Positions 22,130-36,595 of a stretch of DNA of 64,000 nucleotides are shown here, piece after piece; position 1 is the stretch's first letter; the number at the start of each line of letters is the position of its first letter. Location of the stretch: the NCBI RefSeq assembly GCF_965227375.1, contig NZ_CBDDFX010000002.1, positions 1,911,537-1,975,536 on the forward strand, read 5' to 3'. The notes under the pieces are model-generated. The model made no database searches, was not told the DNA's origin, and saw only the letters and a list, made by a program, of their open reading frames with translations. Position numbers and translations under genes: made by a program. This DNA is from Aeoliella sp. GTDB lineage: Bacteria; Planctomycetota; Planctomycetia; Pirellulales; Lacipirellulaceae.

Positions 22130-25100
22130 ATGATCCGATGGTTTGCAACTAACGGCATCGCTGCCAACTTCTTGATGCTTGCCATCTTGATCGCAGGTGT
22201 CTACACGGCGTGGTTTCGCCTGCCGCTGGAGGTATCTCCCGAACGCAGCTTCGAAACGGTGGTCGTCGAGATGACTTACCGTGGCGGGACCGCCAAAGAC
22301 ATCGAGCAGGCGATCCTCATCCCCATCGAAGAAGCCCTCGAAGGCGTCGAGGGAATTAAAGACATCCACGCCGACGGCCATCGAGGCGAAGCCCGCATGT
22401 TCATCGATGCCACTTCCGGCACCGACTTGCGGGAACTGATGGACGATATCGTGGCGCGGATCGACACGATTACAACCTTTCCGGACGAGACAGAAAGCCC
22501 ACGCGTTGTCATTCCCGATTCGTCCAATTGGTGGGAAGTGCTGAGCATCGCGGTAACCGGCGATCTCACTCCTCATGAGCTTCGGGAAGTTGCCCGCAGT
22601 GTGCAAGAGGACGTCCTCGCACTTCCTGGCATCAGCCGTGCCAAGGTGCAAGGAGATCGGCGGTACGAAATCAGCGTAGAGGTCGATTCAACCAAGCTGC
22701 TTTCCTACGGATTGAGTTTTCAGGACCTCTCGGATGCGATTCGGCAGTTCTCGATTGACCTGCCGGCGGGATCAATCGATAGCGACAGCGGCACTTTCAT
22801 CGTTCGCACACGTGGCCAGGCCTACTCCGAGCGGGAGTTCAGCAAGGTGCCCATTCGAGCGGCCAATGGGGCGGACGTCTTGCTTGGAGAAGTTGCCACC
22901 ATCACCGATGGCTTCGAAGAAGGCGAGAAGACCGTCGAATTCAACGGTCGCCCTGCGCTGTTTGTCGAAGTGATGCGGACCGGCAAGGAGAACGCCATCG
23001 ATATATCGGATAAGGTGCACGAATACGTCCGCAACGCACAGTCGCGTTTTCCGGAAGGAATCGAACTGTTCGTTTGGGACGACGAGTCGGTCGAGATTCG
23101 AGGTCGCCTGTCGACGCTCATCCAGTCGTTGCTTCAAGGAAGCATTCTGGTAATGCTGCTGCTGGGCTTGTTCCTTCGCCCCGGGCTGGCGTTTTGGATT
23201 GTCGCTGGAATCCCCGTCGGCTTCGCCGGTGGGGTGATGCTGATGCCCTGGTTTGGTGTCACAGCGAACGTAATGAGCTTGTTCGGGTTTATCATCGTGG
23301 TAGGCATCGTTGTTGATGACGCCATCGTGACTGGCGAGAACGTCTATCTGAAGATGAAGGAAGGGATGCCTCCGCTCGATGCCGCCGTCAAAGGAACGCA
23401 CGAAGTGGCGATCCCGGTTACGTTTGGCGCGCTGACTACCATGGTGGCGTTCATTCCATTGCTGTTCTTCGATGGAAGTTGGGGTGACTTCGCGTCGCAG
23501 GTGCCGCCGGTGGTCGCTCCCGTTCTGCTTTTTTCCCTGGTCGAGTCGAAACTGATCCTGCCAGCTCACCTCAAGCACCTGCGACCCGTTCCGCGGAATA
23601 ACCCGTTCACCAGGTTTCAGACTTCCGTGGCGCAAAGTCTCGAGTACTTTGTCGATCGAATCTACCGACCTTGCCTCGAGAAGGCGGTTCACTATCGGTA
23701 CTCGGTAATGGCGGGCTTTGTTGCCATGGTAATGTTGATGGCGGGGTACTGTCTGAGTGGGCGGATGGAGTTCATTGCTTACCCATCGGTCGACAAACGC
23801 CGCATTTCCGCCGAACTGGACATGCCGGATGATACGCCGCTGGAGGTCACGGAGCGCTACATGGAGCGGATCGAGTCGGCGCTGTTGCAACTTCAGCAGG
23901 AGTACGTCGATCCGAGCGGCAAATCGTTGGTGCAAGATATTTCGACGCTGGTAGGCGCTGCACGAATTCATCGCGACTTCGACAAGACGCGCGGAGCAAT
24001 CTCGTTCGAGGTGTTGTCACCTTCCCACCGAACCGCGCCTGGACCACGGAACAGCGAGCTGGCTACCCGTTGGACGGAACTGGTCGGGCCAATTCCCGAA
24101 GCGACGGAGTTTCAGATTCGCGCCGATTCGAGTATCAACCGCGACCGACATGTCGACAACGAGAATCTCAACATCGAGTTGCGGGGACCAATGTCGCCGG
24201 AAAAGGCCGAGGTGGCGCGTGAGATTCGAAGTTTGCTACGAACGTACGATGAGTTCAGTTCCACTTGGGCGAATATTAACTACGGACAAGACGAACTGGA
24301 GTTGCGGCTAAAGCCGCTGGCGGCCGAACTGGGATTGACCCAGCAGTTGCTAGCGCAGCAGGTACGGCACGCCTTCTTCGGCGAAGAAGCGCAGCGCGTG
24401 CAGCGCGGCATTGATGATATACGCGTCATGGTTCGGCTGCCACGCGAGCAACGCGAGTCGCTGCACACGCTCGACCAAATGCGGGTGCGCACCCCGCGCG
24501 GTGCAAATGTCCCACTTTCGGCGGTGGCGGAGATCTCGTTCGCCAAGGCGCCGTCCTCGGTCGATCGAAAGAATGGGAAGGAAGTCCTTCGCATCGGCGC
24601 CCGACCGGCTAACGAGACCGTCGATGTGCTGGGAATCGCCAAAGAACTGGATCCCAAGATTGAGCAACTATGTCGCGAGCACAATCTCACCTACGAATAC
24701 GTAGGATACGTTGCAGAAGCGGAGGACACCCGGCGAAGCACGATCATTGGTTCCTGCTTGCTGGCGTTCACCTTGTATGGCTTGCTCGCCATCGCGCTAA
24801 AGTCGTTGACTCAACCATTCTTCGTGTTGCTGGCGGTTCCATTTGCTACCGTTGGCGCCCTGTTAGGGCACATCATCTTGGATATTACACCATCCTACCT
24901 TTCGGTGTTTGGAATCCTCGCTTTAGCAGGCGTGGCGGTCAACGATACGTTGGTGATGATCGACTACGTTAACCATCGCCGCGCCGAAGGAGCAAGCATG
25001 CGGGAAGCGGCGTTGCAAGCCGGTGCGAGACGTTTTCGACCGATCATGCTCACGTCGGTTACCACGTTCGTCGGGTTGGTGCCGCTGCTCATGGATAAGT

Positions 25101-25297
25101 CGCTGCAGGCGCAGTTCTTGATTCCGATGGCGGCGTCGCTTGCCTACGGAGTACTATTCGCCACACTCGTTTCGCTATTCCTCACTCCCTGCGCCCTGAT
25201 CGCAGCCGAAGATGGCGGAAGCTGGATAGCTGCTGCAAGGCGGTGGTACGTTCGCCCCTTTGCATCAGGTACGTCGCAAGCGAAGCAGCAGGCTTAG
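22130..25297 (+). CDS. Efflux RND transporter permease subunit (AcrB/CzcA superfamily)
   Basis: 1055 aa, with 12-TM topology and two large periplasmic loops. Conserved RND segments (GIVVDDAIV, AGVAVNDTLVMIDY). Confidence 0.95.
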   Translation: MIRWFATNGIAANFLMLAILIAGVYTAWFRLPLEVSPERSFETVVVEMTYRGGTAKDIEQAILIPIEEALEGVEGIKDIHADGHRGEARMFIDATSGTDLRELMDDIVARIDTITTFPDETESPRVVIPDSSNWWEVLSIAVTGDLTPHELREVARSVQEDVLALPGISRAKVQGDRRYEISVEVDSTKLLSYGLSFQDLSDAIRQFSIDLPAGSIDSDSGTFIVRTRGQAYSEREFSKVPIRAANGADVLLGEVATITDGFEEGEKTVEFNGRPALFVEVMRTGKENAIDISDKVHEYVRNAQSRFPEGIELFVWDDESVEIRGRLSTLIQSLLQGSILVMLLLGLFLRPGLAFWIVAGIPVGFAGGVMLMPWFGVTANVMSLFGFIIVVGIVVDDAIVTGENVYLKMKEGMPPLDAAVKGTHEVAIPVTFGALTTMVAFIPLLFFDGSWGDFASQVPPVVAPVLLFSLVESKLILPAHLKHLRPVPRNNPFTRFQTSVAQSLEYFVDRIYRPCLEKAVHYRYSVMAGFVAMVMLMAGYCLSGRMEFIAYPSVDKRRISAELDMPDDTPLEVTERYMERIESALLQLQQEYVDPSGKSLVQDISTLVGAARIHRDFDKTRGAISFEVLSPSHRTAPGPRNSELATRWTELVGPIPEATEFQIRADSSINRDRHVDNENLNIELRGPMSPEKAEVAREIRSLLRTYDEFSSTWANINYGQDELELRLKPLAAELGLTQQLLAQQVRHAFFGEEAQRVQRGIDDIRVMVRLPREQRESLHTLDQMRVRTPRGANVPLSAVAEISFAKAPSSVDRKNGKEVLRIGARPANETVDVLGIAKELDPKIEQLCREHNLTYEYVGYVAEAEDTRRSTIIGSCLLAFTLYGLLAIALKSLTQPFFVLLAVPFATVGALLGHIILDITPSYLSVFGILALAGVAVNDTLVMIDYVNHRRAEGASMREAALQAGARRFRPIMLTSVTTFVGLVPLLMDKSLQAQFLIPMAASLAYGVLFATLVSLFLTPCALIAAEDGGSWIAAARRWYVRPFASGTSQAKQQA

Positions 25298-25358
25298 AGC
25301 AGGACGGGTGGTTGGTTCCACACCAAGTCGCTGGTGACACATTACTCACTCCGCCGAC

Positions 25359-28300
25359 CTAGGATTTCGACCGCCCTTTGCTTTGCTTCTTGCGGGCGTC
25401 GTACAGTTCGTTCAGGAGTGCGGTGGTGTGCTCGAGAGACTGCTGGAAAGTGTCTTTGAGTTCCTCGAAGCTCTTTGAGTTCTTTTCCGTAGAGATTAGC
25501 AGCGGAGCGATGGAGTCCTTCATTAACTCGAATTGACTTTCGATCACTCCTAGAATCGACTTGGGAACCCGATGGCTGACAGACACGCGAGTTGGCTGCG
25601 ATGGGTCGATCGGAAGGGTGCCGCTCGTTAGCTCGCTAAGCTCGCCAGCAAGCTCCTGCATGGCTTGGATGGCTGCAGCTACGGTAGCGTCGTCGGCGCC
25701 CGCGGGCTTGCGAGCTTCGCTTGCAAGTTGTTTCTTGCTCGTGTCGTGGAGCTTCTTCAAGCCCCGTTCGATGGCATCTTGAATGCTGGCCAGCCCCGAC
25801 CCTACTTCCGATATTCGTTCAACCAGCAGCGACGCCCGCTCCTGCTCAGACTCAATGCGCCGGTTCTCTTGCTCCTGCGCATGTTCGAGCAATCTGTCAT
25901 TGCTCTTGTTCTCGGCTATCACCTCGGCGTTCTCGGCCAAGGCGGTTTTGATAGCGTACAACCCTTCATTAAACGATCGCAACTGTCCCACAACCTGCCC
26001 GATGGGATCTCCTTGGTCGATGCCTTTCATCTTCACGTTTTCGCTAAACGTCCGCTTAATGCTCTCCCATCGCGCGGCCTCGTCGGCGGTGAGTATTCCG
26101 AGTAACTCTCGAAGCTTGAGCAGATTCGATTCCGTATCGGACGTGAGTGTCTGGGCGTCGTTTTCGTAGCTGGAAAGGATTAGCGATTGAAGTTCGGCAT
26201 CGTTCATGATCGGCACTACCTTCTCGGCAATTCGATTCATGTTTCGATACGACCCCTGCAACTTGAAAGGCGGCTCGGTGCGGTAGTCGTCCGACTGGGC
26301 CGCTGAAGCGACGTACTGGCGATTGACCTTGAGAATGACGTCGCGGACCGTCATCAGCTTTCGGAGTGTGGATACAAACTCCTCCACTTCGACAGAAGAG
26401 TAGCTGCCTTCGAACTCTACCCCCTCGCGCTCATCCGTTTCTGCAATCTTGAGGAACGCATACACGTCCTTTTGGCTTCGGCTGGCGAGTCGACTAAGCG
26501 TGGGATTGCTCGTAAGGCAGTTCTCCAGATAGCTCATCTCAAACGCTTTGGCCGAGTCGCCAATGATCTCGCCCAAGTTGTAGATGTCTGCTCGGTTAGA
26601 GAGCATGTCTGGAATCTGGAAACGCTCACCACTTTCGGTGTAGGGGTTTCCGGCCATGACCACTACCACTTTGCGGCCGCGAAGATCGTAGGTTCGAGTG
26701 TGTCCTTTGTAGACGCCCTCGATCTTGCGAGTAGCATCGCAAAGCGAGATGAAACGCTGCAAGAACTCCGGGTTGCAGTGCTGAATGTCGTCAAGATAGA
26801 TCATCACGTTGTCTCCCATTTCGAGAGACAAGTTGAGCTTCTCTACTTCTTCGCGGGCTGCGGCATTGGACGCTTCGGAAGGGTCGAGCGACGTGACCTG
26901 ATGGCCGATTGCCGGCCCATTGATCTTCATGAAGATGATGCCTAGCCGGTTGGCCAGGTATTCCATCAGGGTCGTCTTGCCGTACCCTGGTGGCGAAACC
27001 AATAGCAACAGCCCCATTCGGTCGGTTCGCTTTGACTCACCGGCGGAGCCAATCTGCTTAGCCAGATTATCTCCAATAAGCGGCAAGTAAACGGTGTCGA
27101 TCAACTTGTTTCGCACAAAAGAGGTCAGCACTCGTGGCTTGAACTCGTCGAGTCGCATCTCTTTCCTCGCCGCATCCACTAGTTCGGCCTTGCGGTGTTG
27201 AAAGGCGGTGTACCGAGGAACCGCTTCGGCGACAAACTTGTCCAGTTTGGCCATAAAATGGTTGAAGTGAAGAGCGTAGTTTCCCGACTTGATAGTCGGG
27301 TGAACGCCAAGCAATCCAGAAAGGTCGGCCGTCACCTGGCCATCGACGATCACTTGGCCATCAACCACCGACTGACCTTCCACGCCGGCAGTTGCGAGAT
27401 TGTCCGCTTGCATCAATGCGGCCGCAATCTCATCACGATATTCTGCAGGCGTGTCTGTTGTGGGTAAGAATGCCTCGACCCAGCCGCGAATCAACTGAAA
27501 CCGAGCCGCCGGGTTGTCGGACAGAGGTTCGATGCTGTGGGCGTATTGGTTATCGAAACTGCTGTGACGCAGCAGGCGGCCAAACGCGTCGCAGGCGTCC
27601 GCGGCAACACGACTTACGCAGAACGACCCAAAGGGCCGGCCGTCGGACGGACGGGCCAATTCGGCAAACAGGTACCTGGCCGCCTCGTCTACTAGCGAAG
27701 CATCGAAAAGCCCCTTCGCATCCACAAAAGAGCTTAGTTGCTGTCGCAACGCCTCAGTGTACAGATACTGTTGAGTGGCATTGGGAAAGACCTGTTCGAT
27801 CAACGCCACCCCCTGGAGTCGAGCTGCCATGAGCGCCCGCTCCTCTTGATCCATGAAATGCTCCCAGAACACGCGAGCACATGCCCTCGCCTGCGTCTGA
27901 AAGCAAAGCAATCCAATCCGGTCGTTCATCTTCAACAGTTCGTGAAGCATGAGGCTAGCGTCATGGTCGGTAACGCCCTTCACGTACGACTCTTGATACC
28001 GTGGCCCCATAAACTGCTGAACGCTCTTCGCACGCTCGACTTCTGTTGCGTGCTGGAAGCTTGTGCGAAGCTCTTGGTTCGCCTGAAGGTGCTCGAACAT
28101 CAGGCGGGCCAAGTACTCGCCCCGGTAGACTTCGTCGTTCTCCGACACGACCTCTTGTGCCCACACTTCGCGAGCGGCTTCCAATTGCTCGTCAACCAGC
28201 GGCTCAAAGAAGTTCGTGCCCGTCAAGTGCAAGGTGATGTTTTCGTCCCTTAGAACGGTAGTCAGGTCGAGCGCCTGCACGTTCACCGTAAATTGATGGG

Positions 28301-30884
28301 CGCCGAGCTTTATCAGGTTGTCGCCGTCGGAGAATAGTTCCCGTCGATCCTTCAACTGCCGGATCGCATCTTCCTTGACCGTCTTCAGGCGACTTTGAAT
28401 GTCGTCGACTTTGACCGTATCTTCCAGCTCTTGCAGCTGGCGGATCAAGTCCCGGACCTTATCGATCATCAGGTCCGAGGCAAAGTACGAATGGATCTGC
28501 TCGATATCGTCAAGTCGCTCCACGCGACTCTGGATGCCCTTCAGGATGCGATCGGCCGCGCTAGCAATGGAGCTCGCCCGACGATTTCGCTTCTCCACCA
28601 GCGCCAGCTTCCGAGACTCGAAAGCGTTATAGACCTCGTCCCGCTTCTCGCTCAGTTGAACAACGAAATCGTCAAACTCGGCAAAGCGTCCCTCGAGTTC
28701 CTCGATTTGCACGAGGATCTTCGTCAACAGTTCTTCACATTTTTCTGGCGAATCGCATAGGTCGATGTAGCTAACGACGCTTTGGTCCAGCAGTTTCATC
28801 TGCGAGCCAAACTCAGCGATGCCTTCGACGGATACCAAGTCTTGGATGCGAGACTTGATCGATGCGCGGGCGCCATTGATGGTTCCGAAAATCGCCGAAA
28901 TATCATCGATGATACTGGTGCGCTGCGTGGCGTCGTCGATCTTGAGGTTGCCGACTATTTCAATCAGCATCTCCAGTTCCCGCGCCCCCTGATCGATTAC
29001 CTCGAGCAACTCCTTGGCGTCCGCCACGCGCTCGAGTCCCTCGATTGCCTTGCTCTGCTCCGCGATGCGATCTTGATAAGGCTTTAGTGCCGTGTCGCCG
29101 AGCAGGAACTCGACGCAGCGTTGGGCAAGCACATCCGACTGCTCGACAACCTCTTCTTCAAGCGACTCGATCAATGGATGATCGGCGTAGCGCAGGTCTT
29201 TCAGCGATATGATGGCGCCGCGTATGGCCCTGAGATCTCCAATCGCGCCCACAAACTCATCGATCGTCTCAAAGCGGCTGTGACTAATCGATGCGAGAAG
29301 TTGTTGCGTGCGACTCTGAGTGTCGCGAGTTTGCTGACTGGTCGCGGCGCGAACCTGCCTGACTTTTTCAAACTCATCAATCGCCGCACTGGCGGCGGTC
29401 AGGATTTCGCGAAGGGGCTCGCTGAGTTTGAATGCGTCCTCATCGTCGATCCAGAAGAACGAGTCGAGAATGTCACTGGTCTGCTTGGCAATGTCAATGT
29501 ACTGCTCGGCATAGGCTTCGTCTTTGTCGATCAGTGCCAGCACTGCACGGCATTCCGACATGCCTCGCACAATGTCTCGATTGCCTATCTTGAAAAGCTG
29601 CGAATCCGTGTTGGTTGGCGGGACAAAGTTGGGCCCCACGTAGGGAGTTTGCCAGATCTGCAGGGCGTGGTGCTTCTCTGGCTTGTCTGGCGAGCGAAAG
29701 CAGACGAGTTCGCCGGCATCGAATAAGGAGCTGCCACTGCAAATGAGAGGTGTGTCGACACTCTGCTCGATCACGTTGTATCGCAGCAGGACATAGACGC
29801 CAGTTAGGCGGTTGTAGAAAACGTAGAGGTAGTCTTCACCATTCGGCGATGCGACCCGGCGTTCGAACAACATGCCAGCGGTCTGATGCTCGAATGTCTT
29901 GTGCTCGCCATTCTGGAGATAGTAGCCGTTCGAGAAGATCAACCCATGGCCGTCAGGCAGCAGAACGCATGCATGTTCGATGGCATCGATGCGCCGAGCT
30001 TCCTGCATCTTTTCGTTGTAGACGATATAGCGAAAAGCTTGTTCCTGATAGGGGCGAATCTTCAGCAGGATCAGATTGCCGACAATCGCGTAGTAGATCA
30101 GAGCGTCGTCAAGCGTTTGGTCTGCGTTATCGACAGGCTCGGCGTAAATGCCCTCTCCCGTATCGGTGTTGTTCTCAATCTTGATGGTCAAATCCCCGCC
30201 GACCGTCTCCACAAACACCCGATCTTCGATCGAAATGTGGGGATGAACGCCGCTCGAGTGCATGTCGCGCGTTGTGCGAATCCATTCAAACTCGTGTTGC
30301 GGGGGAAACTGAACCTCGTGATCACTTCGGCTATCGACGTACTTTAGCTGATCGTCAACGAGCAGCCATTTGAAGCACTTAATGTCGGAGACACTTTCCC
30401 CAACCCTGAAGACCATGTAGAGGTGCGGATCGCGAACGAAGAATTTGGCGAAGCGTGCATCCTTGTAGTACTTGTAGAGTTCGCCAAATTCTCGTTGGAA
30501 TCGCTCGTCGGCTATCAGCGAGAGGGGAGCTGCGTGAAACGTGTTCTCGCGAAACTCATAGGACGCGAAGACGTCTTCGAGATGCGTTTCGCTCTTGAGC
30601 CCCAAGTGAACGTTGTAGCCGAACAGAAACTTGTCTCCCACCGACACCAGGTCGCGGGGGACGCAGTTGTTCTCGGTGGTAATGCGTTCGGTTGCCAGCA
30701 GCGTCGTGGCGATAGCGCCAAACACGTCCTTGCGCGCAGCGTTTAAGCGATCCAGTCGTTGCCGCAACTCCTGGCCATGCTCGCGCAAACGGTTCCGCAG
30801 GATTTCATAGGCCCCGCTTTCAAGCTGGACGTCCTGCTCCGTTTCGCTTGCTGTCGCCTCACTGGACGTTTCGGGCGAAGCCAT
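25359..30884 (-). CDS. Giant (1841-aa) coiled-coil-rich protein with an AAA+ ATPase core (AAA_5/dynein-like); function unknown
   Basis: Walker A (LLLVSPPGYGKTTLMEYLA) and Walker B (VMIYLDDIQHCNPEFLQRF), with arginine-finger/sensor-like residues (MAGNPYTESGERF). Long helical regions N- and C-terminal. Lies 60 nt downstream of the flotillin gene on the same strand. Confidence 0.8.
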   Translation of the reverse strand: MASPETSSEATASETEQDVQLESGAYEILRNRLREHGQELRQRLDRLNAARKDVFGAIATTLLATERITTENNCVPRDLVSVGDKFLFGYNVHLGLKSETHLEDVFASYEFRENTFHAAPLSLIADERFQREFGELYKYYKDARFAKFFVRDPHLYMVFRVGESVSDIKCFKWLLVDDQLKYVDSRSDHEVQFPPQHEFEWIRTTRDMHSSGVHPHISIEDRVFVETVGGDLTIKIENNTDTGEGIYAEPVDNADQTLDDALIYYAIVGNLILLKIRPYQEQAFRYIVYNEKMQEARRIDAIEHACVLLPDGHGLIFSNGYYLQNGEHKTFEHQTAGMLFERRVASPNGEDYLYVFYNRLTGVYVLLRYNVIEQSVDTPLICSGSSLFDAGELVCFRSPDKPEKHHALQIWQTPYVGPNFVPPTNTDSQLFKIGNRDIVRGMSECRAVLALIDKDEAYAEQYIDIAKQTSDILDSFFWIDDEDAFKLSEPLREILTAASAAIDEFEKVRQVRAATSQQTRDTQSRTQQLLASISHSRFETIDEFVGAIGDLRAIRGAIISLKDLRYADHPLIESLEEEVVEQSDVLAQRCVEFLLGDTALKPYQDRIAEQSKAIEGLERVADAKELLEVIDQGARELEMLIEIVGNLKIDDATQRTSIIDDISAIFGTINGARASIKSRIQDLVSVEGIAEFGSQMKLLDQSVVSYIDLCDSPEKCEELLTKILVQIEELEGRFAEFDDFVVQLSEKRDEVYNAFESRKLALVEKRNRRASSIASAADRILKGIQSRVERLDDIEQIHSYFASDLMIDKVRDLIRQLQELEDTVKVDDIQSRLKTVKEDAIRQLKDRRELFSDGDNLIKLGAHQFTVNVQALDLTTVLRDENITLHLTGTNFFEPLVDEQLEAAREVWAQEVVSENDEVYRGEYLARLMFEHLQANQELRTSFQHATEVERAKSVQQFMGPRYQESYVKGVTDHDASLMLHELLKMNDRIGLLCFQTQARACARVFWEHFMDQEERALMAARLQGVALIEQVFPNATQQYLYTEALRQQLSSFVDAKGLFDASLVDEAARYLFAELARPSDGRPFGSFCVSRVAADACDAFGRLLRHSSFDNQYAHSIEPLSDNPAARFQLIRGWVEAFLPTTDTPAEYRDEIAAALMQADNLATAGVEGQSVVDGQVIVDGQVTADLSGLLGVHPTIKSGNYALHFNHFMAKLDKFVAEAVPRYTAFQHRKAELVDAARKEMRLDEFKPRVLTSFVRNKLIDTVYLPLIGDNLAKQIGSAGESKRTDRMGLLLLVSPPGYGKTTLMEYLANRLGIIFMKINGPAIGHQVTSLDPSEASNAAAREEVEKLNLSLEMGDNVMIYLDDIQHCNPEFLQRFISLCDATRKIEGVYKGHTRTYDLRGRKVVVVMAGNPYTESGERFQIPDMLSNRADIYNLGEIIGDSAKAFEMSYLENCLTSNPTLSRLASRSQKDVYAFLKIAETDEREGVEFEGSYSSVEVEEFVSTLRKLMTVRDVILKVNRQYVASAAQSDDYRTEPPFKLQGSYRNMNRIAEKVVPIMNDAELQSLILSSYENDAQTLTSDTESNLLKLRELLGILTADEAARWESIKRTFSENVKMKGIDQGDPIGQVVGQLRSFNEGLYAIKTALAENAEVIAENKSNDRLLEHAQEQENRRIESEQERASLLVERISEVGSGLASIQDAIERGLKKLHDTSKKQLASEARKPAGADDATVAAAIQAMQELAGELSELTSGTLPIDPSQPTRVSVSHRVPKSILGVIESQFELMKDSIAPLLISTEKNSKSFEELKDTFQQSLEHTTALLNELYDARKKQSKGRSKS

Positions 30885-30944
30885 CAGATCGCTTCCGAGG
30901 GGCTAGAGGTTCAAGACACTGCATGGTGACACGAATCAGAGCGA

Positions 30945-33056
30945 CTACTTCTTGTCGTCCGCCACGCCGATGCCTAACGCCGCCAGGCGTTTATCCGACA
31001 CCCCTAGCTGCTTCACCGTGTCGAGTAGTCGGTTAAGCTCGCTTCGTGTCTCGTCCGCATCCGTCATGCCGAGCATCTTGAGCAGCACAGCGGAGATGGA
31101 CAGATCCTTGATGTCGTCCGTGCTGAGATTGAACTGCTCGACAAGCTGCATCGTCTTGTCCCTGAAGTACTCCGGGTTGCCGTTGAAGAATGTGTTCTTC
31201 ACGTCCGTCAACACTTCGCTGTTGTGCACAAAGCGATCGACTGCCTTGCCGCCCTTCACCGAATCGACGATCTTGTCGAAGAACTCGCTCTCGCCCCCAA
31301 CGATGTCGATGCGGGCGCTCTTGAGTGCTTCGCCGACAAGCTGCGATTGGGCTTCGGCGATTTGTCGCTGGGCGTGAATCGCTTCGATTTCGATCTCTTT
31401 GTCTTTGTTCAGTCGGAGCTTGAATTCCTCGTGCTCGCGGCCAACGCCGTCGAAGAGCTTCATCGCTTCGGCTTTTTGGGTAATGCCGTCGGCTTCGCTG
31501 CTGAACTTGAGCTTCATCACCGTGGCTTCGGCAGTGCCTTCCTTCTCCTTGGCTTCGGCCATGGCCCCGACGCCAGTCGCCTCGGCGACGGCTTTCTTTT
31601 CGATCACATGCGCTTCCGCCTGACCTGTTTTCTCCAGGGCATCGGCTGCGGCGATCTGGACGTGGGCTTCGGCGAGCCCCGTCGCTGCGTGATCGGCCGT
31701 CTTGCCTTCGGCCAGCATCTTCATGGCCTGGGTCTTGCGTTCGGCGGCGTCGCGATCCGCGTCGGCTTCGATTACGACCTGCTCGGCCTTGAGCTCGGCC
31801 GACTGCTTGGCTGCCTCGGCCGCCTTGACCTCGATCACCAGGTTTTCTTGTGCAGCCATCTCGGCTTTTGTCACCGTTACCTGCTTGAGACGGTCGGCTT
31901 GAGCAAACTCTTGCGTGTCCTTGATCTTCTCTTGCTCTTCCACCACCGCTCGCTCGACCACAACGCGCTCGCGGATGACTTCCTGGATGTTGCGATTCTC
32001 GACTTCAATCGCTTTGTCTTTCTCGACAACAGCGACACCAACCAAGCGGTCTCGTTCGGCGACTTCCAACAGGCGATCTCGCTCCACCCGTTCCACTTCT
32101 ACAGCTTCGGTGCGTTGCTTGTTCTTCTCCGCAACGATGATCTGACGATCTTTGTTCTCCTCGGCAACCTTCAGTTCTTCTTCAGTCTGGATACGTGCGG
32201 TTTCGGCTTTGAGCCGCTCTTGCTCTTGTACCTTTCGGGCTTCAGCCTCTTCGCGAGCACGGATTTCAGCCGCTTCGCGTTTCATCTTTTCTTCCGCCTC
32301 GATTTGCTGTCGATCGAGATTCAAGATGACTTCACGAGCTTCTACGTCCTGCTTGCGAATAAGCTTTTCTTTTTCTCGGGTGATGTCGTTGGCTCGAATG
32401 TGCTCTTTGGCCGTAAGATCCGTAATTTTTTTGATGCCTTCGGCATCCAGAATGTTATTCGGGTCGAGTAACTCAACCGAAGTCTGCTCGAGGTAGTCGA
32501 TCGCGGCGTCGTCGAGCCGGTATCCGTTCAGGTCAACACCAATGACCTTGATGATCTCCGTCTTGAACTTCTCTCGCTTGTCGTACAAGTCGACAAACTC
32601 AAATTGCTTGCCAACCGTTTTTAGCGCTTCGGAGAACTTGGCGTCGAACAACTCTGTGAGCGTGCCTTCGTCGGACGCCCGGTGGCAACCGATGGATTGT
32701 GCGACTTCCTTGATCTTCTCGTCTTCTTTGTCCACGCGAACGAAGAATGCGACTTTGATATCGGCTCGAATGTTGTCGGCGCAGATCAAACCATCATTCC
32801 CCTGGCGGGCGATCTCGATGCGTTTCAGTGTCAGGTCCATACGGTCCACGCGGTGCATGATGGGGACAACCCACATGCCTTGACCGGTGGCAACCGTCAA
32901 TCTGCCTCCGCCGGAGCGAACCAGCGCTTCCTCCGGAGCAACCTTCCGATAGAAATTTGAAAGCGCAAATCCGATGAGTAGGAGCAAGACGATGGCTGTC
33001 AATACAATGCCACCTACAATGACGTACACATCGCTTATTTCTGCCAGCAACATCAT
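30945..33056 (-). CDS. Flotillin-like SPFH/Band-7 domain protein (YqiK/FloT-like)
   Basis: N-terminal transmembrane helix, SPFH domain (VRSGGGRLTVATGQGMWVVPIMHRVDRMDLTLKRIEI...) and a very long E/A/K/R-rich coiled-coil flotillin region (EAEEKMKREAAEIRAREEAEARK...), then a C-terminal flotillin tail. Confidence 0.9.
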   Translation of the reverse strand: MMLLAEISDVYVIVGGIVLTAIVLLLLIGFALSNFYRKVAPEEALVRSGGGRLTVATGQGMWVVPIMHRVDRMDLTLKRIEIARQGNDGLICADNIRADIKVAFFVRVDKEDEKIKEVAQSIGCHRASDEGTLTELFDAKFSEALKTVGKQFEFVDLYDKREKFKTEIIKVIGVDLNGYRLDDAAIDYLEQTSVELLDPNNILDAEGIKKITDLTAKEHIRANDITREKEKLIRKQDVEAREVILNLDRQQIEAEEKMKREAAEIRAREEAEARKVQEQERLKAETARIQTEEELKVAEENKDRQIIVAEKNKQRTEAVEVERVERDRLLEVAERDRLVGVAVVEKDKAIEVENRNIQEVIRERVVVERAVVEEQEKIKDTQEFAQADRLKQVTVTKAEMAAQENLVIEVKAAEAAKQSAELKAEQVVIEADADRDAAERKTQAMKMLAEGKTADHAATGLAEAHVQIAAADALEKTGQAEAHVIEKKAVAEATGVGAMAEAKEKEGTAEATVMKLKFSSEADGITQKAEAMKLFDGVGREHEEFKLRLNKDKEIEIEAIHAQRQIAEAQSQLVGEALKSARIDIVGGESEFFDKIVDSVKGGKAVDRFVHNSEVLTDVKNTFFNGNPEYFRDKTMQLVEQFNLSTDDIKDLSISAVLLKMLGMTDADETRSELNRLLDTVKQLGVSDKRLAALGIGVADDKK

Positions 33057-33649
33057 TCATCACTCTCTGTTGTTAGTTTCTCGATCTGGTAGGTTTTTGC
33101 TGCTTCATCGTAGCCAACCACCATGGCCAGATCGCCTTTCTCAAAGTCTATCTGCCTGGCTCGCACATCGATTAACAGAGGTGCGGCATCCGTAGCCACC
33201 TTCGCTTGCCCGACATCCTCAGTAACTTCGCTCGTAGTCACTTCGCATATAGCGCCAATAAGTTTGCCCGGCGTGTAGTGTTCAGTCTCATCAAACATCT
33301 TCTGAAGCGGCTCGGTGAGCCCCTTGGCCCCCACAAGTCCAATCCCCAGATTTCGCAGGATCAGGACTGCTCCGTGCCCCCAGGTGATGTCCTCGGGTTT
33401 TCCATCCACGAGAACCCACAAAACCAACGATGCCGCCCACCAAATCAGGCCAAAACACGCCAACCATATAATGATTGGGACGTCCCCCAAATTCAAGAAT
33501 TTTAGGATGGCCATTCCCACACTGGTGGGCGAACCGGTATCGGCGTCGACATCTATGTCGAATTCGAACAAATCCAGGTCGGCAGCCCCCACCAGGGCCA
33601 CCAAGCCGTAGGCCAAGATCAAGAGGATCAAGGCCGTGGCTGGCAGCAC
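33053..33649 (-). CDS. NfeD/YqiJ-like membrane protein (short NfeD, OB-fold C-terminus)
   Basis: N-terminal transmembrane helices and a C-terminal beta-rich OB-fold-like segment (GKLIGAICEVTTSEVTEDVGQAKVATD...LLIDVRARQ). Its stop overlaps the flotillin start (ATGA), the classic NfeD-flotillin pairing as in E. coli yqiJK. Confidence 0.65.
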   Translation of the reverse strand: MLPATALILLILAYGLVALVGAADLDLFEFDIDVDADTGSPTSVGMAILKFLNLGDVPIIIWLACFGLIWWAASLVLWVLVDGKPEDITWGHGAVLILRNLGIGLVGAKGLTEPLQKMFDETEHYTPGKLIGAICEVTTSEVTEDVGQAKVATDAAPLLIDVRARQIDFEKGDLAMVVGYDEAAKTYQIEKLTTESDE

Positions 33650-34506
33650 CGGCCAAGCCAGACAGTATTCGAGAAAGTTGGTTATGGTCCTATCCCCCCT
33701 TACGCTGTAACCAGCGCCAAAATTGAGGCGTTATTGATCAGTATTCGCCGGGTCCGACTCGATATTGGAGATTATCGTCGAGCCGGCCTGCCCGCGCAAA
33801 GCCGCCGAAATGATATCATGAATGGCGGGCCGCAGCTAATCGGCGCCAAACCTCCAAGACCACCCCTTGGCCCTAGGAATAGGGGCTATTACGGGACGAT
33901 CTTCATCCAGCATCACCGTGGCCGATGGCTTCCGGAACGATGGCGAGGAGAGGCTAGCGACCTGCCTCCACAGCCCGTGCAGCAACGACGTTTGAACACT
34001 CTACCGCAACGGCTGGATGCACACACGTTGACAGTCAGGCGCGGCATGCCTCTTCCTGATGGAGCTCGACCCCGCTGTACTGCGAAGTGATCGCCGAATG
34101 ATCCCGAGGACCATCTGGGGCAACGTCTCATTGGACCATTGTGCGTCAAGCTCCTCCCCAAGAAGGGAGCTTTCACATTTTGAGACTCGCACTGGAATGT
34201 GAGTGCTAGCCAGGGGCTGATTTCTGAGAGCGCTCCAATAAGCGAAGATGGCTGAGCTAATGCCACTGCCTCCACCACTGATGTTGGTAGTTGCCTTCCC
34301 TCGTTTCGCATTCGATCCAACGGAGCAATGTGAAGATACTATGAAGTTCGCTCTGTTTTTCTGCTATATTCTGCTCTTTGTTGCTTTTTTGAATCAGTTT
34401 GTTTGCTGTCCCTACGTCCTTTGGTAGGGAGTGGGGGATACGACGTCTCCATTGGGAAGCCCCCGAAGATGATTGGGTGACACTGACAGCCGGGTTGCAG
34501 GACACA

Positions 34507-35070
34507 ATGTCGTCTATACCTCAGAAGGATGTCTCTTCGACGAAAAAGCGAGACCTGGAGCTCTTCACAGAGCTGTCGGGGCGGTACCAGCTGCAAGTCT
34601 TGGGATACATCTACGCCACGCTCCACAACTTGGATGACGCGGAGGATGTCTACCAACAAACTTCGATCATCATGTGGGACAAGTTCGACGAGTATGAAGT
34701 CGGGAGTGATTTCTTGAAGTGGGCCTGCACCGTCGCTCGTTACGAAGTGCTGAACTTCTTACGGACTGCCAAGAATCGGCCTCGCTATTTCTCTGACGAA
34801 TACATCCAGCAGGTCGCAGAACTTCCCAGTGGTCACGACTCCGGTCGGCTCGAATCAAGACAGCAAGCGCTCAATGGATGCTTGCGACGTCTTCGGAATC
34901 GCGATCAGCAGCTCATTGAACGATGCTATGGCGGCGCCACCAAGATACATGAAGTAGCGAGACAACTAGGGCGGACACCCGAGAGTGTTTACACCTCACT
35001 CCGCCGCATTCGCCGGACCCTGCACGAGTGTATCAATCGTGCCCTGGCTTTGGAAAGTGGTCATGAGTAA
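34507..35070 (+). CDS. ECF-type RNA polymerase sigma-70 family factor
   Basis: Sigma region 2 (QLQVLGYIYATLHNLDDAEDVYQQTSIIMWDKFDEY) and region 4 helix-turn-helix (GATKIHEVARQLGRTPESVYTSLRRIR). The start is chosen at the MSSIPQ Met. Confidence 0.85.
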   Translation: MSSIPQKDVSSTKKRDLELFTELSGRYQLQVLGYIYATLHNLDDAEDVYQQTSIIMWDKFDEYEVGSDFLKWACTVARYEVLNFLRTAKNRPRYFSDEYIQQVAELPSGHDSGRLESRQQALNGCLRRLRNRDQQLIERCYGGATKIHEVARQLGRTPESVYTSLRRIRRTLHECINRALALESGHE

Positions 35071-36595
35071 ACCGAATCACTCGTTCAGCGAGTTCTACTC
35101 GCTGCTCGATGCCGCGTGCGAAAATAGACTTACGGCCGAGCAGTCACGCAGGCTAGAGGAATTGTTGCGTAGCGATGAATCCGCTCGCAGAGAGTATGAA
35201 GAATACCTGCACCTCAATCTGGAGTTGCACTTCGCCTCGCGGGCTCATCGTGCGAAGCATGCCGCGAAAGGAGTGCGTCGGCAGGGCTCGGAAGTTCGCT
35301 CGGTAAAACCAGCGTCAGCAAGGAGTTTCTTAGGCTTTGCGAATCAGCGACAGGCGGTCACCTGCGCCGCGGCGGCAGCAGTGTTCTTGGTGCTGCTTAC
35401 CGCGGCAGGCGTGATCCCTTGGGGCGACTCGGGCGACCCGACAACGGCCATGCCCATCGAGACCGTGGGCAAGCTCACCAACGCCGTGGCCGTGAAGTGG
35501 CGAGACACCCAAGGCGCACCTTCGTTGGGTGAAGACCTCGCCGCCGGACAGCGGCTGGTTATTGATCACGGAGTGGCAGAGATCACCTTTAGGGACGGGG
35601 CAAAAATCTCGGTGGCGGGGCCGGCGTCTCTGCAGTTGAGCGACGCCATGGCTATGAGGCTGTTCTCTGGCCGATTGACCGCCACGGTGCCTTCCAGCGC
35701 GGTTGGGTTCCGAGTGGACCTTCCGAACGCACGCCTGATCGATAAAGGGACCGCGTTCGGAGTAAACGTCGTCGCGAATGGCGACGACGAGATTCACGTG
35801 TTCGAAGGCCAGGTCGACGCATTCATCCGTGCCGGTAGTTCTCAAGGATATGACAAACAAGTGCAACTGAGAGCTGGGCAGGCGGCGCAATTCAATGAAA
35901 AGTGGTCCGCTGTGCGATTGAGCGAGTCGGAGAAATCGCCCCTCTCGCCTTCGCTGGCGCTCTATCTCGAGAATCAAGGGAAGGACACTGTCGCACCAAC
36001 GCGGCAGTACATCCTGAGTCAGTCCTACCTGGTCGGTCCTGCCCCAGGAACATTTGCTATTGAGGACGGCGAGATCAACTTGCGTGCAGGACTGGATAAC
36101 ACGGTCTGCGTGATGGTTGATGAGTCGCATTTGTCCCTGCCGAGTAGCGGATACCTGGAGGTGGTGGTGCCACCACTGAAGCATCCCTATGACGGGGTCT
36201 TCCTGATGTGCAGTTCCGTTCCCAGACAGCCAGGCGGCACCAACAACTTTGGCCTTCGTTTGCGACGTGACGTGCGTGGCATTTGGGTGATGCCCATCAA
36301 AGACCCTGAGTACCGTAGCGTGCTCGAAACGGAATTTGGGAGAGAAGGCATGAACATGCTCCCCGATCCGGGTGGCGCGTTGCGATTCAGCATCGAGCGA
36401 GTAACAAGGTCTCGCTTCCGGTGTTACTACCAACCCATCGGGCGTGATTCGGATCCGGTATTTGTAGATGAAATCGTCGTGCCTCAGCTCGAGTCGTATG
36501 ATGAGCTCTGTGTTGGAGTGCAGGCGTATTGCTTTGACGAAGTACGCAACTATCGATTCACGGAACTAGACGTGATTCCGGTAGCAAGCCAGTAG
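35063..36595 (+). CDS. Anti-sigma factor (FecR-like) with large extracytoplasmic C-terminal domain
   Basis: Its start overlaps the sigma-factor stop (ATGAGTAA). The N-terminal anti-sigma helix region (LLDAACENRLTAEQSRRLEELLRSDESARREYEEYLHLN), a transmembrane segment (VTCAAAAAVFLVLLTAAGVI) and a FecR-like beta domain (RLVIDHGVAEITFRDGAKISVAGPASLQL) are typical of planctomycete ECF anti-sigma partners. Confidence 0.7.
   Translation: MSKPNHSFSEFYSLLDAACENRLTAEQSRRLEELLRSDESARREYEEYLHLNLELHFASRAHRAKHAAKGVRRQGSEVRSVKPASARSFLGFANQRQAVTCAAAAAVFLVLLTAAGVIPWGDSGDPTTAMPIETVGKLTNAVAVKWRDTQGAPSLGEDLAAGQRLVIDHGVAEITFRDGAKISVAGPASLQLSDAMAMRLFSGRLTATVPSSAVGFRVDLPNARLIDKGTAFGVNVVANGDDEIHVFEGQVDAFIRAGSSQGYDKQVQLRAGQAAQFNEKWSAVRLSESEKSPLSPSLALYLENQGKDTVAPTRQYILSQSYLVGPAPGTFAIEDGEINLRAGLDNTVCVMVDESHLSLPSSGYLEVVVPPLKHPYDGVFLMCSSVPRQPGGTNNFGLRLRRDVRGIWVMPIKDPEYRSVLETEFGREGMNMLPDPGGALRFSIERVTRSRFRCYYQPIGRDSDPVFVDEIVVPQLESYDELCVGVQAYCFDEVRNYRFTELDVIPVASQ

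Follow-up and report, generated by a model that had tools for sequence, protein, structure and literature searches.

Introduction

The closest described counterpart of the locus reported here is an operon that Ravi, Anantharaman, Aravind, Gennaro et al. (mSystems 2024, PMC11237479; preprint 2020) presented as an accessory of the PspA/phage-shock system, with a flotillin, YqiJ and an AAA+ protein among its products. In their account a CesT/Tir–PspA dyad is joined by a protein with transmembrane (TM), band-7, coiled-coil and flotillin regions, by a 3TM protein of the YqiJ/YuaF type and by a beta-propeller/coiled-coil/AAA+ protein; abbreviated operons without CesT/Tir–PspA are more widespread, Dokdonia donghaensis ANH61663.1 is the supplementary example, and ESCRT-like, ATP-dependent remodelling is raised for the PspA-linked AAA+ proteins (PMC11237479). 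This description is an unquantified, one-paragraph prediction that includes no experiments and gives neither the class of the AAA+ domain nor the DD of its Walker B motif (PMC11237479). The same three proteins, with the same domain architectures and in the same order, are encoded in a 64,000-nucleotide (nt) stretch of a planctomycete genome, that of Aeoliella sp. (contig NZ_CBDDFX010000002.1, positions 1,911,537 to 1,975,536; hereafter the window), as a 198-amino-acid (aa) YqiJ-like membrane protein, a 703-aa flotillin and a giant 1841-aa ATPase. The initial annotation of this DNA had not recognised the combination as a described system, which the publication of Ravi et al. corrects; the association itself has thus already been published as a prediction, and the present work confirms and quantifies it. 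We propose that the locus is a yqiJ-like/flotillin/giant-ATPase operon representing the PspA-less form of a membrane-stress module, and that the ATPase remodels flotillin or PspA assemblies, a reading that we favour on balance.

NfeD-type proteins such as YqiJ and YuaF are partners of prokaryotic flotillins in operons (Hinderhofer et al., 2009, PMC2636767), and the window locus follows this rule for prokaryotic SPFH2 proteins in having an NfeD-family partner upstream of its flotillin. The order, NfeD-like gene first and then flotillin, is that of yqiJ–yqiK in Escherichia coli and yuaF–floT in Bacillus subtilis, and the flotillins of those pairs share the N-terminal TM helix, the putative SPFH domain and the E/A-rich coiled coil of the window protein, although the latter is ~150 aa longer, by a C-terminal stretch that YqiK lacks, and belongs to a divergent subfamily. 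In E. coli, by contrast, no ATPase gene lies downstream of yqiK, which is followed by sibD/ibsD.

Precedents for coupling such scaffolds to ATPases are available, SPFH proteins being described as forming cages that partner AAA+ machines, with HflK/C–FtsH as an example (see PMC13220708). By analogy, the triad would follow the logic of HflK/C–FtsH, prohibitin–m-AAA and erlin–p97, in which an SPFH scaffold is coupled to an AAA+ protein at the membrane. FtsH is a membrane-anchored protease of the classical AAA type and is encoded outside the hflKC operon. The giant ATPase differs from it in lacking both a TM anchor and, by Pfam, a peptidase (M41) domain and in being of the MoxR class, and it differs from midasin and dynein in having a single AAA+ module and not six concatenated ones.

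Relation of the Aeoliella locus to the published operon

An open reading frame (ORF) check placed the three genes on the minus strand where the initial annotation had put them. The stop codon of the 198-aa gene overlaps the flotillin start in the motif ATGA (a 4-nt overlap) and between the flotillin stop and the ATG of the giant gene there are exactly 60 nt, again as first noted. A consensus scan of this 60-nt gap detected no terminator-like or sigma-70-like site, and RNA from the gap was no more stable than its shuffles (z = +1.09). The arrangement is operon-like, and the gene spacing suggests that the three genes are probably co-transcribed as one operon.

Compared component by component with the operon of Ravi et al., the window flotillin has the TM segment (aa 10–28) and homology to YqiK, and alongside it, with the 4-nt overlap, is a protein of the YqiJ/YuaF type (YqiJ_N; hhalign 97%). 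The ATPase corresponds by AlphaFold2 modelling and fold searches (DUF3686/AAA) and by occupying the same position in Flavobacteriia loci with a Dokdonia-like layout; on this basis the ATPase of Ravi et al. is equated with the Pfam families DUF3686/DUF7902. The CesT/Tir–PspA dyad of the full form is missing from the window: hidden Markov models built from the Bacteroidota neighbours found no PspA or CesT in the 64 kb at E<=10. The locus therefore represents the abbreviated form that Ravi et al. included, here in a planctomycete genome. The full Dokdonia layout was reproduced by Flavobacteriia/Bacteroidota loci in our sample, the divergent helix-turn-helix (HTH) regulator included. What is new beyond the published prediction are the linkage counts, the equation with DUF3686/DUF7902, the MoxR structural class and the invariant DD Walker B, together with the occurrence in tractable hosts and plasmids and the absence from phages.

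Linkage of the three genes across bacteria

The giant-protein family comprises >6000 clusters at 90% identity and ~1000 clusters at 50% identity, and a homolog of the giant gene was present in at least 585 species (one genome per species). Linkage was assessed in the best 80 of the at least 585 tblastn loci (46–61% identity to the query), in which ORFs were called mechanically and then searched with the window proteins. Record titles assigned 33 of these loci to Bacteroidota, 19 to Verrucomicrobiota, 17 to Planctomycetota, five to Clostridia and three to Desulfobacterota, with one each from Kiritimatiellota, Fibrobacterota and an unclassified source. A flotillin gene lay directly upstream of the giant gene and on the same strand in 60 of the 63 loci whose sequence reached 3 kb or more upstream of the giant gene, and this linkage recurred in Planctomycetota, Bacteroidota, Verrucomicrobiota, Desulfobacterota, Kiritimatiellota, Clostridia and Fibrobacterota. 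All but five of the flotillins with at least 700 bp of DNA ahead of them were preceded by a YqiJ-like gene (57/82 screened loci overall), and in most homologous loci the flotillin/giant-gene junction measured between -11 and ~130 nt. All-against-all clustering of the neighbouring ORFs from the 80 loci detected no other near-universal gene family around the triad. In at least nine phyla the three genes are inherited together, and a functional link of the giant ATPase with the flotillin is, as far as gene order can tell, strongly supported. The suggestion of a three-gene unit tying the ATPase to a flotillin is thereby upheld, by the 60/63 count, by the ATGA overlap and by a gap without a terminator or notable RNA structure; the outcome that would have spoken against it, homologs that never neighbour SPFH/NfeD genes, is clearly false.

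The triad occurs with different flanking genes in Symmachiella dynata, and also in a 98%-identical metagenomic contig. Plasmid pQBR103 of Pseudomonas fluorescens also carries it: the gene preceding that for SPFH, annotated there as encoding a 'hypothetical protein', codes for a YqiJ-family member (hhalign 99.7%). On a Streptomyces plasmid the flotillin–ATPase pair has a small hypothetical protein ahead of it. The family was further found in Proteus mirabilis, Vibrio campbellii, Streptomyces, Deinococcus and Hymenobacter, whereas phage genomes yielded no matches to the giant protein.

A lower GC content of the region, put by eye at about 50–55%, had initially been taken as consistent with horizontal acquisition. 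The dip is real but small: the triad has a GC content of 55.3% against a window mean of 58.1%, which is at the top of that estimate and amounts to 2.8 points where the standard deviation of 8.3-kb windows is 1.8 points, and other parts of the window also go down to 55–56%. As an argument for acquisition the dip is weak; the cross-phylum identities of 46–54%, as high as those within Pirellulales, and the carriage on plasmids are better evidence than GC and indicate mobility. A mobile anti-phage or abortive-infection system, in which a membrane scaffold is combined with an NTPase sensor or effector, would share these features of patchy phylum distribution, high cross-phylum identity, plasmid occurrence and slightly low GC, and large NTPases with repeat-domain sensors are frequent in defence systems. 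We nevertheless rejected this explanation as very unlikely, since PADLOC-DB 2.0 gave only a weak P-loop match to mad8 (E 0.0044, 0 significant stretches) and none for the flotillin or YqiJ, phage genomes contained no matches, and no defence genes are conserved nearby, the window neighbours being an efflux system and a sigma factor/FecR pair. Moreover, Pfam showed no nuclease, protease or pore-former effector domain, and it is PspA and polyamine stress genes that recur beside the triad.

In about one-third of the syntenic loci the flotillin and ATPase genes are separated by 0.5–2.4 kb containing small ORFs (for example L027:5662–6186, L038:6802–7251, L030:9398–9955, L031:9536–9958 and L034:9522–9941, with ~15 more loci); judged by eye, some look like transposases of the RAYT/IS200 type, others like endonucleases similar to DUF559 or proteins of the GxxExxY type. 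Since these ORFs are mutually unrelated, we rejected the idea of a fourth conserved gene lying between flotillin and ATPase; small selfish genes seem to have inserted at this junction repeatedly, with the order of the operon left intact. Upstream neighbours of the giant gene in loci L021, L026 and L040 are likewise unrelated (DUF4258, DUF2147, a Uma2 endonuclease-like protein and TonB_C). One homolog, P0072 (1711 aa, 62% identity), came from a eukaryotic set (EukProt g33011.t1) and may reflect bacterial contamination or transfer.

The flotillin and its YqiJ-like partner

BLASTP aligned 486 aa of the 703-aa protein with YqiK, the flotillin of E. coli, at 31% identity (E 2e-48), and the two are unambiguous homologs. 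The alignment spans the Band_7 region of YqiK (aa 39–192), and YqiK itself matches both Pfam Band_7 and Flot. The protein has a single N-terminal TM helix at aa 10–28; behind this come, on the YqiK alignment, an SPFH domain, then a long coiled coil rich in E and A, and finally a C-terminal region. Its identity was set through YqiK because direct searches were empty, with no Pfam match even at E<=10 and none in NCBIfam or PDB sequence searches. Only 4/37 syntenic flotillin orthologs reached the Pfam Band_7 threshold, and a profile of the 37 gave a weak match to the QmcA coiled coil in PDB (E 0.0012). Flotillins beside the giant gene are 38–68% identical to the window flotillin, compared with 31% for YqiK, which argues for a dedicated lineage; their median length is 698 aa. 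On these comparisons the window flotillin appears to belong to a divergent ~700-aa subfamily, mostly missed by the Pfam Band_7 and Flot models, that accompanies the giant ATPase. We note that in a verrucomicrobial subclade (L062, L067, L069, L075 and L081) the flotillin is longer (724–810 aa) and 38–41% identical to that of the window, and that the genes upstream of it include a major facilitator superfamily transporter and unannotated proteins.

For the 198-aa protein Pfam gave YqiJ_N (E 4.6e-6), and a profile of 36 syntenic orthologs aligned with full-length E. coli YqiJ over 184 columns (hhalign probability 97.2%, E 4.3e-11); the match of the family profile to the soluble domain of B. subtilis YuaF (2k14) was weak (E 0.13). 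Hydrophobic segments occupy the N-terminal part (aa 1–19 and 48–77) and an OB-like soluble domain the C-terminus. The first assignment of this pair as flotillin and NfeD/YqiJ-like protein therefore holds, by the YqiK match (E 2e-48) and the YqiJ profile (hhalign 97%).

Domain architecture of the giant ATPase

Pfam recognised DUF3686 (1.7e-194, aa 39–477) and DUF7902 (3.4e-27, aa 599–681) in the giant protein and, more weakly, AAA (1.3e-6), AAA_5 (1.9e-5) and RuvB_N (7.8e-5) at aa 1283–1416. AAA_5 scored 25.1 bits against a cut-off of 22 and PF00004 AAA a similar 29.3 bits, so that sequence alone does not discriminate between them. No hydrophobic TM segment was detected. The protein was modelled with AlphaFold2 as two overlapping pieces (aa 1–1160 and 1130–1841) from shallow alignments of 40 homologs; a profile search started from a diverse alignment brought back, for the most part, planctomycete-like proteins that were already included and added little diversity for the modelling. 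The first piece had a mean predicted local distance difference test (pLDDT) score of 79.6.

The initial annotation had expected long coiled-coil or helical regions on both sides of the ATPase core, placed at aa 1150–1400. In the model the core lies at about aa 1285–1620 and the N-terminal ~400 aa, after a first long helix, form a beta-propeller that is the core of DUF3686. Most Foldseek matches in PDB for this domain (aa 61–412) were beta-propellers, those of Elp1, the clathrin terminal domain, Vps18, CyRPA and prolyl oligopeptidases. A protocoatomer relationship is not claimed, as the clathrin, IFT-A and Vps18 matches had TM-scores of 0.08–0.13 and covered mainly the propeller. The propeller is followed by a region with helices of 20–53 residues (aa 429–850; DSSP of the model) and an all-helical domain, with poor conservation over aa 1000–1250. 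Conservation is highest in the AAA+ core and second highest in the propeller. The C-terminal tail (aa 1650–1841), modelled as long low-confidence helices, has a column identity of 0.12–0.18 and an occupancy of 0.34–0.63 and is missing or different in many homologs, those of Bacteroidota ending at ~1620–1680 aa; these ~190 residues look like a lineage-specific extension. Overall, the model describes a predicted soluble protein made up of a helix, a propeller, helical bundles, a helical domain, a MoxR-class AAA+ module and a variable tail.

The Walker A (SPPGYGKTT) and Walker B (IYLDDIQ) motifs first reported are present and do not vary among 22 homologs with identities down to 32%; in these, SPPGYGKTT, D1365 and D1366, the sensor-1 Asn of AGNPYTESG and the Arg of PDMLxNRAD are all invariant. 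The canonical Walker B, hhhhDE with its catalytic glutamate, is replaced by IYLDD. The fold of the module is closest to MoxR proteins, and Foldseek and structure comparison gave CbbQ and NorQ as the nearest solved structures, at 13–16% identity to MoxR proteins. The propeller is unique to the giant family among MoxR AAA+ proteins, and the giant ATPase further departs from CbbQ, NorQ and RavA in having no von Willebrand factor A (VWA)/metal ion-dependent adhesion site (MIDAS) partner and a Walker B DD in place of DE.

MoxR-type maturation pairs are known in CbbQ/CbbO, NorQ/NorD and RavA/ViaA. By comparison with them, the ATPase could be an assembly chaperone for some other membrane complex, with the flotillin microdomain concentrating the client and the ATPase maturing it or inserting a cofactor or subunit. 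The structural proximity of CbbQ and NorQ fits this, as do the MoxR/AAA_5-like 'GNP' (sensor-1) and 'NRAD' motifs, the Pfam AAA_5 match (1.9e-5) and a propeller that might serve as a client-binding module. We consider it unlikely, given the low identity to MoxR proteins, the DD where MoxR proteins have DE and the lack of both a VWA/MIDAS partner and a conserved client gene nearby.

The product names in databases point elsewhere. NCBI calls the family 'DNA repair ATPase' and Pfam describes it as 'ATPase involved in DNA repair', and an ATPase acting in DNA repair, to which the adjacent flotillin would be unrelated, could be argued for from this name together with the weak P-loop similarity to RuvB_N (7.8e-5) and the presence of RuvB among the Foldseek matches of the AAA+ module. 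It is hardly credible, however: Pfam found no DNA-binding, nuclease or repair domain, the neighbours are membrane or stress genes, and neither domain content, gene context nor the searchable literature gave any backing to the name. Literature searches returned nothing on DUF3686, nor on a 'DNA repair ATPase' with flotillin. Thousands of annotated genes probably bear a misleading name here; 'MoxR-like ATPase', used by JGI for the same proteins, is a better fit to the structural comparison.

Association with PspA

In 15–17 of the 80 loci, all from Bacteroidota, genes matching CesT_Tir_1 (1.4e-52) and PspA_IM30 (1e-36) lie directly upstream of yqiJ, accompanied by a divergent HTH regulator. On pQBR103, an SBW25 megaplasmid (L084, 1–13190), the triad forms the tail of a ten-gene same-strand string encoding YjfI, PspA, a rhomboid protease, DUF2491, DUF350, DUF1190, a glutathionylspermidine-synthase-like protein, a YqiJ-like protein, SPFH and the ATPase; this string unites two classes of PspA operon, the polyamine and the band-7/AAA+ class, that are separate in Ravi et al. 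In both settings, Bacteroidota and pQBR103, the triad is fused to an operon of the CesT/Tir(YjfI)–PspA kind.

PspA could accordingly be the true client, with the ATPase as a counterpart of Vps4 that recycles PspA/ESCRT-III polymers and with flotillin and YqiJ serving only as the membrane platform. The position of PspA and the CesT/Tir chaperone in these Bacteroidota loci and on pQBR103 argues for this, Ravi et al. raised ESCRT-like, ATP-dependent remodelling (PMC11237479), and in B. subtilis the SPFH protein YdjI is described as bringing PspA to the membrane (Scholz et al., 2021, as cited in PMC10936438). The likeness to ESCRT-III/Vps4 consists in a membrane-remodelling polymer, PspA, being genomically linked to an AAA+ protein in a subset of loci. 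The giant ATPase is not a Vps4 homolog, however: its AAA+ module is of a different clade and not of the classical one, it has no MIT domain, and PspA is missing from most loci. We regard PspA as the sole client as a rather improbable alternative.

Proposed role of the triad

In the favoured reading, a membrane-stress module whose ATPase acts on flotillin or PspA assemblies, YqiJ and flotillin would assemble the usual SPFH oligomeric scaffold at the cytoplasmic face of the inner membrane. The AAA+ modules of the ATPase would join into a ring, and arms made of propeller and coiled coil would dock the protein on this scaffold. Binding of ATP and its slow hydrolysis, in keeping with a Walker B that reads DD and not DE, would then let the protein build, take apart or remodel its substrate. 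This would be the flotillin lattice, the clients of the flotillin or PspA/ESCRT-III polymers, whether their genes lie near the triad or farther away, and the triad would thereby form part of an envelope-stress response. The logic would be analogous to that of HflK/C–FtsH and ESCRT-III–Vps4, with an AAA+ motor of a different class, and these SPFH–AAA+ and ESCRT-III–AAA+ precedents make a remodeller plausible.

Several points weigh against this proposal. Three of the 63 homologs have no adjacent flotillin (L021:9929–15526, L026:10007–14871 and L040:7660–12534), and no YqiJ/NfeD gene was detectable upstream in four members of the verrucomicrobial subclade (L062, L067, L069 and L081; L075 has too little upstream DNA), so that the partnership is not absolutely obligate; this subclade may not need an NfeD function, or may supply it through a fusion or a substitute. 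The counts apply to the systematic sample, homologs at 27–42% identity having been spot-checked outside it. As the 64 kb hold neither PspA nor CesT, any link to PspA at the window locus would be in trans, and co-transcription there is read from gene spacing. MoxR ATPases are usually paired with a VWA/MIDAS partner, and none was found, either as a VWA domain in the three proteins (Pfam) or as a conserved VWA neighbour family in the 80 loci. The Walker B DD may also mark a nucleotide-dependent switch, not a motor. Finally, literature searches found no experimental work on any family member, and those on YqiK/YqiJ from 2020 onward found nothing on an ATPase partner.

A more specific version of the remodelling proposal, which we offer tentatively, is that the giant protein would be an uncharacterised membrane-remodelling motor in which a MoxR-class ring carries six propeller/helical arms and strips or assembles flotillin cages or recruited PspA/ESCRT-III polymers. 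The six-arm arrangement would be reminiscent of clathrin/protocoatomer building blocks, and the DD Walker B would tune a slow switch. Among the rival explanations we rank a PspA disassemblase first, followed by a MoxR-like chaperone, a defence system and a DNA repair ATPase, the last two being essentially unsupported.

Features and surroundings of the locus

The coordinates of the triad, of the parts of the giant protein and of the adjacent features are collected in Table 1. The neighbours of the triad in the window are a resistance-nodulation-division (RND) efflux system and a divergent extracytoplasmic function (ECF) sigma/FecR pair. The gene-free upstream region presumably contains the operon's promoter and regulatory signals, although a consensus scan of it for sigma-70-like promoters (other promoter types being outside the scan) found none; Rfam gave no family in 24500–35500, which includes this region, and outside the 60-nt gap, too, the surroundings of the triad yielded no terminator or structured RNA. 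The ECF sigma/anti-sigma pair next door could regulate the operon; it is not kept beside the triad in Symmachiella. A conserved gene upstream of yqiJ was also considered, since a 222-aa ORF is called there in the 98%-identical metagenomic contig (L002), and rejected: the window copy is broken by 1-, 2- and 3-nt indels, and the non-triplet changes indicate that the ORF of L002 is probably not coding.

Table 1. Positions of the triad, of predicted parts of the giant ATPase and of adjacent features in the window
Feature	Position	Strand	Basis or remark
YqiJ/YuaF-type NfeD-like membrane protein gene, 198 aa, GTG start	33053–33649	-	ORF, Pfam and profile match
Flotillin gene (SPFH2/YqiK-like), 703 aa	30945–33056	-	ORF and BLASTP to E. 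coli YqiK
Spacer between flotillin and giant gene, 60 nt	30885–30944	-	Sequence; GGAAG Shine-Dalgarno-like motif 7 nt before ATG
Giant cytosolic AAA+ ATPase gene, 1841 aa	25359–30884	-	Pfam DUF3686, DUF7902, AAA, AAA_5
N-terminal long helix, aa 13–55	30720–30848	-	AlphaFold2 model
Beta-propeller domain, aa 61–412, core of DUF3686	29649–30704	-	AlphaFold2, pLDDT ~85–92; Foldseek
Long helical-bundle/coiled-coil region, aa 429–850, including DUF7902 (aa 599–681)	28335–29600	-	DSSP of model, Pfam
Small beta subdomain (aa 857–895) and all-helical domain (aa 899–1250)	27135–28316	-	AlphaFold2, conservation profile
MoxR-class AAA+ module, aa ~1285–1620	26025–27032	-	AlphaFold2, pLDDT 85–97
Walker A SPPGYGKTT, aa 1297–1305	26970–26996	-	
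Walker B VMIYLDDIQH, aa 1360–1369, DD for DE	26778–26807	-	
Sensor-1 MAGNPYTESG	26628–26657	-	
Putative Arg finger PDMLSNRAD	26586–26612	-	
Variable C-terminal helical tail, aa 1650–1841	25362–25937	-	Conservation profile, model
Gene-free upstream region, ~750 nt	33650–34398		Between operon and divergent ECF sigma/FecR pair
ECF sigma gene	34399–35070	+	Divergent from operon
FecR-like gene	34985–36595	+	Divergent from operon

Significance

Much work on bacterial membranes deals with flotillins and PspA as the proteins that organise and repair them. To our knowledge no dedicated ATPase has been described for either in model bacteria, and for this reason the build-up, turnover and energising of their assemblies have remained open questions. 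The window locus is a further member of the computationally described system, for which a function as an ATP-driven remodeller is suggested by homology and gene order. With a huge ATPase encoded almost always together with a dedicated flotillin/YqiJ pair, the operon is a candidate energy source for flotillin and PspA dynamics, and its presence in tractable hosts (SBW25 with pQBR103, Proteus mirabilis, Vibrio campbellii and others) makes this idea directly testable. If the six-armed motor proposed above were real, it would be the missing 'Vps4-like' energy source for the dynamics of bacterial flotillins and PspA.

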